Below are positions 22,780-25,142 of a stretch of DNA of 64,000 nt, one piece after another. The notes beneath the pieces were generated by a model. That model made no database searches. It saw nothing but the letters and a program-made list of their open reading frames with translations, and was not told the origin of the DNA. Position 1 is the stretch's first letter; each line of letters opens with the position of its first letter. Position numbers and translations under genes: made by a program. The DNA comes from Escherichia coli (GTDB taxonomy: Bacteria > Pseudomonadota > Gammaproteobacteria > Enterobacterales > Enterobacteriaceae): the NCBI RefSeq assembly GCF_965641715.1, contig NZ_OZ282453.1; one strand, written 5' to 3'.

Positions 22780-23685
22780 TTCAAAGAGATGACAGACACA
22801 CACTATATTGGCCGCTTCGCCCCCTCTCCTTCCGGCGAGCTTCATTTTGGTTCTCTGATTGCTGCGCTTGGCAGCTATTTGCAGGCTCGCGCCCGGCAAG
22901 GTCGCTGGCTGGTACGCATAGAAGATATCGACCCGCCTCGTGAAGTTCCCGGTGCCGCAGAAACTATCCTGCGCCAGCTGGAACATTACGGCCTGCACTG
23001 GGACGGCGATGTTCTCTGGCAATCGCAACGTCACCACGCCTATCGCGAAGCACTCGCCTGGTTACATGAGCAAGGACTAAGTTATTACTGCACCTGCACG
23101 CGTGCACGTATTCAAAGCATTGGCGGTATTTACGACGGCCATTGCCGGGAATTGCATCATGGACCAGGCAACGCCGCAGTGCGTATCCGCCAGCAGCATC
23201 CGGTCACCCAGTTTACTGACCTGCTGCGCGGCATTATTCACGCCGACGAAAAACTGGCACGGGAAGATTTTATTATTCATCGCCGTGATGGTTTGTTTGC
23301 CTATAACCTGGCGGTGGTGGTCGATGATCACTTCCAGGGCGTGAGCGAAATTGTCCGCGGGGCAGATTTGATCGAACCGACAGTGCGGCAAATCTCGCTG
23401 TACCAGCTTTTTGGCTGGAAAGTGCCAGATTACATTCATCTGCCGCTGGCGCTTAATCCACAAGGCGCTAAACTTTCCAAGCAGAATCATGCGCCTGCGT
23501 TGCCGAAAGGCGATCCACGCCCGGTACTAATCGCGGCACTTCAATTTCTGGGGCAGCAGGCAGAAGCACACTGGCAGGATTTCAGCGTCGAGCAAATCCT
23601 TCAGTCAGCCGTCAAAAACTGGCGGCTTACCGCAGTGCCTGAGTCGGCAATTGTAAATTCAACATTCTCAAATGCGTCATGCTGA
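22759..23685 (+). CDS. gluQ: Glutamyl-Q tRNA(Asp) synthetase
   Basis: 308 aa; class I aaRS HIGR-like motif ([19 protein letters not shown]) and KLSK motif. Confidence 0.9.
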
Positions 23686-23744
23686 GCTATGATTAGCCGC
23701 TATTTTTTTGTCCTGAATGATGTTTGACACTACCGAGGTGTACT

Positions 23745-25142
23745 ATTTTTACCCGAGTCGCTAATTTTTGCCGCAAGGTGCTAAGCCGCGAGGAAAGCGA
23801 GGCTGAACAGGCAGTCGCCCGTCCACAGGTGACGGTGATCCCGCGTGAGCAGCATGCTATTTCCCGCAAAGATATCAGTGAAAATGCCCTGAAGGTAATG
23901 TACAGGCTCAATAAAGCGGGATACGAAGCCTGGCTGGTTGGCGGCGGCGTGCGCGACCTGTTACTTGGCAAAAAGCCGAAAGACTTTGACGTAACCACTA
24001 ACGCCACGCCTGAGCAGGTGCGCAAACTGTTCCGTAACTGCCGCCTGGTGGGTCGCCGTTTCCGTCTGGCTCATGTGATGTTTGGCCCAGAGATTATCGA
24101 AGTTGCGACCTTCCGTGGACACCACGAAGGTAACGTCAGCGACCGCACGACCTCCCAACGCGGGCAAAACGGCATGTTGCTGCGCGACAACATTTTCGGC
24201 TCCATCGAAGAAGACGCCCAGCGCCGCGATTTCACTATCAACAGCCTGTATTACAGCGTAGCGGATTTTACCGTCCGTGATTACGTTGGCGGTATGAAGG
24301 ATCTGAAGGACGGCGTTATCCGTCTGATTGGTAACCCGGAAACGCGCTACCGTGAAGATCCGGTACGTATGCTGCGCGCGGTACGTTTTGCCGCCAAATT
24401 GGGTATGCGCATCAGCCCGGAAACCGCAGAACCGATCCCTCGCCTCGCTACCCTGCTGAACGATATCCCACCGGCACGCCTGTTTGAAGAATCGCTTAAA
24501 CTGCTACAAGCGGGCTACGGTTACGAAACCTATAAGCTGCTGTGTGAATATCATCTGTTCCAGCCACTGTTCCCGACCATTACCCGCTACTTCACGGAAA
24601 ATGGCGACAGCCCGATGGAGCGGATCATTGAGCAGGTACTGAAGAACACCGATACGCGTATTCATAACGATATGCGCGTTAACCCGGCGTTTTTGTTTGC
24701 CGCCATGTTCTGGTACCCACTGCTGGAGACGGCACAGAAGATCGCCCAGGAAAGCGGCCTGACCTATCACGACGCTTTCGCGCTGGCGATGAACGACGTG
24801 CTGGACGAAGCCTGCCGTTCACTGGCAATCCCGAAACGTCTGACGACGTTAACCCGCGATATCTGGCAGTTGCAGTTGCGTATGTCCCGACGTCAGGGTA
24901 AACGTGCATGGAAACTGCTGGAGCATCCTAAGTTCCGTGCGGCTTATGACCTGTTGGCCTTGCGAGCTGAAGTTGAACGTAACGCTGAACTGCAGCGTCT
25001 GGTGAAATGGTGGGGTGAGTTCCAGGTTTCCGCGCCACCAGACCAAAAAGGGATGCTCAACGAGCTGGATGAAGAACCGTCACCGCGTCGCCGTACTCGT
25101 CGTCCACGCAAACGCGCACCGCGTCGTGAGGGTACCGCATGA
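23745..25142 (+). CDS. pcnB: Poly(A) polymerase I, non-AUG (ATT) start
   Basis: ORF track opens at TTG 23724; the known product begins at ATT 23745 ([19 protein letters not shown]); no in-frame ATG upstream of the catalytic domain. Confidence 0.85.

Follow-up and report, generated by a model that had tools for sequence, protein, structure and literature searches.

The window, by which we mean the whole stretch of 64,000 nucleotides analysed, is Escherichia coli chromosome and carries thpR, sfsA, dksA, gluQRS, pcnB, folK, and yadN in this order on the + strand. When 401 nt around the 5' end of pcnB (positions 23600-24000) were used as the query, matches were found in 5424 of 5426 complete E. 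coli genomes. The sequence was 100% identical to that of strain L73 and 99.3% identical to that of MG1655, and the initiation region was free of differences from MG1655. For gluQRS, the longest open reading frame (ORF) begins at ATG 22759 (308 aa) and the RefSeq start is ATG 22789 (298 aa, MTDTHYIG...).

The gene downstream of gluQRS was identified as that of poly(A) polymerase I (PAP I). The NCBIfam equivalog model for PcnB, NF008634, scored 997 bits against a cutoff of 702, and positions 1-468 of its 469 were aligned with residues 8-471 of the protein when translated from the TTG that opens the ORF. Pfam families PF01743, PF12627, and PF12626 all scored well over the gathering threshold, which gave an architecture of a PolyA_pol head, an RNA-binding domain, and an arginine-rich C-terminus. 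Furthermore, residues 28-442 correspond to PDB 3AQM chain A, the crystallised E. coli enzyme, with 415 of 415 aligned residues identical. The protein is identical to that of K-12 pcnB (b0143; UniProt P0ABF1; WP_010723084.1), and WP_010723084.1 is annotated on both the strain L73 locus and MG1655. The K-12 gene has the same gluQRS-pcnB-folK context, Shine-Dalgarno (SD) sequence, ATT, and first codons as the window, with no relevant difference, and the gluQRS-pcnB-folK order is kept in distant homologues as well. The gene and the positions in its frame that bear on the start are as follows.

23718..23720, + strand: TGA, the in-frame stop preceding pcnB, from the sequence read
23724..23726, + strand: in-frame TTG that opens a mechanical 472-codon ORF, not a conserved start; no SD sequence (-2.3 kcal/mol)
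23735..23740, + strand: SD sequence GAGGTG, 4 nt upstream of ATT; invariant in 80/80 species
23745..23747, + strand: ATT initiation codon; 80/80 species, NF008634 position 1, and literature
23745..25142, + strand: pcnB, encoding poly(A) polymerase I; 465 codons from ATT, then the stop; the RefSeq start maps here
23778..23780, + strand: in-frame GTG, Val-12 counted from ATT; no SD sequence (-0.1 kcal/mol); gives the 454-aa product of many ab initio callers
23898..23900, + strand: first in-frame ATG, Met-52 (...KVMYRL); Leu in 56/79 species

A sequence-only reading of this DNA had placed the opening of the ORF at TTG 23724 and the conserved N-terminus of the protein at ATT 23745. Both coordinates were confirmed: the ATT lies seven codons downstream of the TTG and is followed directly by TTT (23748-23750), and NF008634 position 1 aligns with the residue encoded by the ATT, i.e., residue 8 of the TTG-started protein, leaving the seven residues added by the TTG start outside the model. 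The same reading had stated that pcnB lacks an in-frame ATG at its N-terminus, and indeed both direct inspection of the sequence and the ORF list showed that no in-frame ATG is nearby, the first one being codon 52. This Met-52 ATG was reportedly proposed as the pcnB start by Liu and Parkinson in 1989. Calculation of the duplex formed between each candidate SD region and the 3' end of 16S rRNA gave -9.8 kcal/mol for ATT, which is within the top 3% or so of random 20-mers drawn from the window, in comparison with -2.3 kcal/mol for TTG and -0.1 kcal/mol for GTG-12. Among the TTG, ATT, and GTG candidates, an SD sequence was thus found only for ATT, and no in-frame ATG or GTG accompanied by an SD sequence was found upstream of or near the N-terminus.

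Conservation was examined with one genome per species from 80 species of Enterobacteriaceae (86-100% protein identity), 79 of which had a complete pcnB sequence for codon counts. The ATT, described earlier as preserved in the window, was invariant in 80/80 species, as was the GAGGTG, with the four spacer bases between them being variable. In pcnB, 14 columns of the alignment are invariant Ile; codon 1 was the only one of these with a single codon in 79/79 sequences, and the other 13 were mixtures of ATT, ATC, and ATA. On the sequences compared, this pattern of ATT is well past chance expectation. Within E. coli, the 46 nt from 23730 to 23775 were identical in 5419 of 5423 complete genomes, and the one variant inspected had a change of a spacer base with ATT kept.

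The sequences on the two sides of this signal behaved differently. Upstream of the SD sequence, the 80 species diverged with insertions and deletions of all length classes modulo 3, indicating that this region is non-coding. In 43/80 species, neither ATG nor GTG nor TTG occurred in the interval from the preceding in-frame stop to the ATT, and in three species the stop was merely 15 nt before ATT. A canonical codon at -21, the position of the TTG in the window, was present in 28/80 species (26 TTG and 2 ATG). Downstream of the ATT, codons 2-11 varied at just five sites (ACC/ACT, GCT/GCA, TTT/TTC, CGC/CGT/CGA, and AAG/AAA), each of them a third position at which the change is silent when read from ATT, which indicates that the stretch before GTG-12 is coding. 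In Salmonella enterica subsp. diarizonae and arizonae, an in-frame ATG without an SD sequence takes the place of the TTG at -21, and ATT and GAGGTG are kept; Salmonella PcnB is often annotated at 472 aa from this ATG.

Around the ATT, nearly all nucleotides including synonymous positions were found to be fixed, and a weak hairpin was predicted in the same segment.

23734..23780, + strand: nucleotide-frozen region of SD sequence, spacer, ATT, and codons 2-12; synonymous sites nearly invariant in 79 species
23734..23755, + strand: predicted weak hairpin (RNAalifold) between the SD sequence (CG-GGUG, 23734-23740) and codons 2-4 (UACCCG, 23750-23755), with AUU in a 9-nt loop

Averaged over the first 10 codons, the third-position entropy was 0.15 bits, lower than in any other of 450 sliding windows (0.97 on average for the gene), and 7 of the 13 columns of pcnB with a single codon were located in codons 1-12 (Fisher p = 5e-8). 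The neighbouring genes showed no such freeze in the same species; their first 10 codons gave 1.04 (gluQRS; mean 1.21) and 1.07 (folK; mean 1.23). Codon 4 of pcnB was CGA, a rare Arg codon, in 79/79 species. These comparisons suggest that more than the start codon is constrained in the initiation region, most likely by stabilising selection that keeps the rate of initiation from a weak codon finely set. An alternative is that the block of approximately 45 nt (23734-23780) is a distinct cis-regulatory RNA element, either an SD-sequestering hairpin or a site for a trans-acting factor, that tunes AUU initiation. If true, it would explain why synonymous positions are frozen here but not in the neighbouring genes. 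The predicted hairpin has a free energy of -4.5 kcal/mol, and the three changes observed in it were one-sided and wobble-compatible. RNAalifold analysis of 67 distinct sequences gave weak hairpins only and no double-sided covariation, which for the SD hairpin results from the invariance of its columns. The pairing was not kept in Thorsellia or in a homologue with 55% identity. The single-sequence fold of 23700-23800 had ordinary stability (z-score 0.64), an Rfam scan of 23500-24000 gave no match at E<=1, and an inverted-repeat search of 23640-23900 found none. We treat such an element as a tentative proposal that is rather unlikely to be correct. The frozen block is the sole part of our results that goes slightly beyond the descriptions found in the literature. 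A second synonymous cold spot was observed at 23862-23885 in codons 40-47 (TCC CGC AAA GAT ATC AGT GAA AAT), of which codons 41-43 had a single codon in 79/79 sequences; it is located shortly before ATG-52, where it might coincide in part with pS1, the internal sigma-S promoter of PMC2939334.

Upstream of the initiation region, one promoter-like sequence was found.

23665..23693, + strand: sigma-70-like promoter TTCTCA-17-TATGAT, inside the 3' end of gluQRS

This was the sole promoter-like match in a scan of 23550-23950, in which 0.1 were expected, and it probably corresponds to pB, a promoter already published. Conservation of the TATGAT-TAGCCGC block extended to 72/80 species, with 42-78 nt separating it from ATT and all three classes modulo 3 represented. 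In E. coli YD786 (NZ_CP013112.1; positions 189-1397 of our locus L084), an IS4-like ISVsa5 transposase element lies between gluQRS and pcnB at approximately position 23677 of the window, and the insertion point separates the -35 hexamer of the putative pB from its -10 hexamer. Two other candidates in this region were rejected. The TTGACA at 23724-23729, which is a perfect -35 consensus and includes the TTG that opens the ORF, has no -10 partner at 16-18 nt, and outside Escherichia, Citrobacter, and a few further genera this hexamer is not conserved. An out-of-frame ORF of 15 codons (ATG ATG TTT GAC...CGC TAA, 23717-23764) was evaluated as an upstream ORF with a regulatory role; conservation of its ATGs does not extend beyond Escherichia. 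This ORF overlaps the SD sequence and ATT and has no SD sequence of its own, and its stop is trivially inside the frozen block.

In the literature, AUU is given as the start codon of pcnB that limits PAP I synthesis, by Binns & Masters 2002 as cited in passages of PMC2939334 and PMC4447247; the same study is cited for the pcnB AUU in passages of PMC3561954, PMC5499595, and bioRxiv 10.1101/063800. According to passages of the citing papers PMC2939334, PMC3561954, and PMC4447247, Binns & Masters 2002 is the source for both the use of AUU and the higher expression on changing AUU to AUG. Only infC and pcnB are described as confirmed AUU-initiated genes of E. coli (bioRxiv 10.1101/063800; PMC5499595). 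The earlier statement that AUU initiation is known for pcnB and infC and limits PAP I is thus borne out, at the level of papers citing Binns & Masters 2002. PAP I is present at approximately 30-50 molecules per cell, and its overproduction is toxic (PMC3561954). The introduction of PMC3561954 names UUG as the pcnB start codon. In addition, the "poor ribosome binding site" mentioned in secondary sources is at odds with the strong SD sequence calculated for ATT, and this wording may come from the older UUG model. In the solved PAP I structures 3AQK, 3AQL, 3AQM, and 3AQN, the chain begins at residue 28 and residues 1-27 are absent. PcnB was absent from the TRAINSPOTTER N-terminomics supplements searched, as was any mention of pcnB from the main text of the Ribo-RET preprint.

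Taken together, we conclude, with a probability of roughly 94%, that translation of pcnB starts at AUU 23745, which is placed by the strong SD sequence and whose weakness as a start codon limits PAP I. The position of the ATT, its SD sequence, their conservation, and the coding frame were established here by sequence and its comparison, and the use of AUU in vivo and its limiting effect on expression are taken from the literature.

The start at TTG 23724 would give a 472-residue protein (MTLPRCTIF...) in which the ATT is an internal Ile codon. This TTG opens the ORF and lies downstream of the predicted promoter and hence is expected to be on the mRNA; databases often list the 472-aa version, RefSeq MULTISPECIES entries among them, and UUG is the codon named in the introduction cited above. 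However, the weak duplex at this TTG, the presence of a canonical codon at -21 in only 28/80 species with none upstream of ATT in 43/80, and the position of the seven extra residues outside NF008634 all argue against it. The codons between TTG and ATT overlap the SD sequence and vary non-synonymously. Moreover, an internal Ile codon would be expected to alternate between ATT and ATC, as is the case in the other 13 invariant Ile columns. We consider initiation at this TTG highly improbable. A start at GTG 23778, which would give 454 aa and make the conserved 33 nt upstream of it a regulatory element of the 5'-untranslated region, is hardly credible. This GTG is invariant in 79/79 species and is picked by ab initio callers, and the conservation of the preceding 33 nt at the nucleotide level is compatible with an untranslated element. 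In contrast, GTG-12 has no SD sequence, and the substitutions in codons 2-11 all fall on third positions and leave the protein read from ATT unchanged. Distant homologues have a similar basic-hydrophobic N-terminal peptide despite different nucleotides, NF008634 covers the residues before GTG-12, and the literature is also against this start.

The third candidate, ATG 23898, would yield a short isoform from Met-52, transcribed from an internal sigma-S promoter, either as the main functional product or as a second product beside the AUU form. PMC2939334 reported activity of the internal promoter pS1 in vitro and, under special conditions, in vivo, as well as two bands detected with anti-PAP I on Western blots; in that paper, the Met-52 form is discussed as an isoform that might be made in minor amounts in a sigma-S-dependent manner. 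Upstream of ATG-52 is a weak SD-like AAGG (-4.0 kcal/mol), and a 414-aa version has been deposited in databases. On the other hand, the occurrence of Leu at position 52 in 56/79 species indicates that ATG-52 is not a conserved start and is at most a lineage-specific extra. According to PMC2939334, pS1 is silent in normal growth, and translation from Met-52 would cost the protein its first 51 residues, of which 28-51 belong to the crystallised construct (residues 28-442). Accordingly, a functional start at Met-52 in either form seems improbable to us, and initiation at AUU 23745 is retained as the preferred reading.

With initiation at AUU 23745, the strong and correctly spaced GAGGUG (23735-23740) would position the ribosome at AUU 23745. 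The AUU would pair poorly with the initiator tRNA and would be discriminated against by initiation factor 3 (IF3), so that initiation would be inefficient and PAP I would be held at a few dozen molecules per cell; this low level would matter because excess PAP I is toxic. The product would consist of 465 residues beginning with (f)Met-Phe-Thr-Arg-Val. The dependence of pcnB initiation on IF3 is presumed by analogy with infC. The infC gene, which encodes IF3 and is compared here from the literature as it is absent from this window, likewise has an AUU start that limits its product; the codon is conserved across many bacteria, and IF3 discriminates against AUU. The two genes differ in that the AUU of infC forms an autoregulatory loop in which the product itself is the discriminator, whereas that of pcnB would act as a fixed brake with no feedback known. 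A rare ATT start that attenuates expression was also described for ebpA of Enterococcus faecalis (PMC4447247), which was first annotated at a downstream ATG, although ebpA encodes an unrelated protein (a pilus tip adhesin) in a Gram-positive host.

The systematic scan covered Enterobacteriaceae; wider sampling consisted of representatives of 50%-identity clusters and a handful of individual contigs, seven in number, that were looked up at the position homologous to the ATT, with identities given relative to E. coli PcnB.

CP043324.1: 67% identity; GAGGTG-N4-ATT
Candidatus Erwinia haradaeae, an aphid symbiont with a genome of 1.08 Mb: 62% identity; GAGGTG-N4-ATT
Thorsellia kenyensis: 62% identity; GAGGTG-N4-ATT
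Metagenomic contig L088: 55% identity; GAGGA-N7-ATT
Metagenomic contig L090, with gluQ-pcnB-folK-panB: 54% identity; ATC at the homologous position and no canonical alternative
Metagenomic contig L092: 53% identity; ATG ATT TTC
Metagenomic contig L091: 48% identity; GTG

ATT was therefore found at the homologous position in four more distant homologues and ATC in one, and the homologues sampled at still greater distance had ATG or GTG starts. In contig L090 (SRR20241965_5373), the ATC precedes the called ATG (at 601) by approximately 75 nt; ATG, GTG, and TTG are absent from the stop to the conserved N-terminal peptide, and the sole other near-cognate codon is a CTG directly after the stop. Many of the distant representatives begin with M-I/L-K/R-K/R-hydrophobic, which indicates that the basic-hydrophobic N-terminal peptide is old. 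Judging from the homologues compared, the non-canonical start codon appears to be derived in the enterobacterial lineage and its relatives.

In T. kenyensis (JBHLXE010000108.1), GAGGTG-tatt-ATT is located 39 nt (13 codons) upstream of the annotated GTG at 601, and the RefSeq protein of 546 aa is probably mis-started. PcnB of this species also has an insertion of approximately 60 residues after the N-terminal peptide.

AUU initiation of pcnB has been known since 2002 and is encoded in current RefSeq. The sequence-only reading had predicted that automated callers would misplace the start, and this prediction held in part. It did not apply to RefSeq/PGAP, which placed the start at ATT (WP_010723084.1, 465 aa) in 5/5 E. 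coli records inspected, presumably guided by the curated NF008634 model. Elsewhere, wrong versions of 472, 454, and 414 aa are widespread. Searches for the exact protein in public databases found forms of 472 (TTG), 465 (ATT), 454 (GTG-12), and 414 aa (ATG-52), and those of 472, 465, and 454 aa were each present on at least 1000 contigs. Among 134 family entries sampled, the start was at ATT in 54, downstream in 59, and upstream in 21. Gene calls of ENA, Logan, and JGI accounted for most of the 447- and 454-aa forms, and NCBI was the source of the 465-aa form. The practical value of these findings is an annotation check, as callers restricted to ATG, GTG, and TTG truncate or extend PcnB. For the family, the combination of ATT and GAGGTG is fixed throughout the sampled Enterobacteriaceae and extends to Erwiniaceae symbionts and Thorselliaceae.
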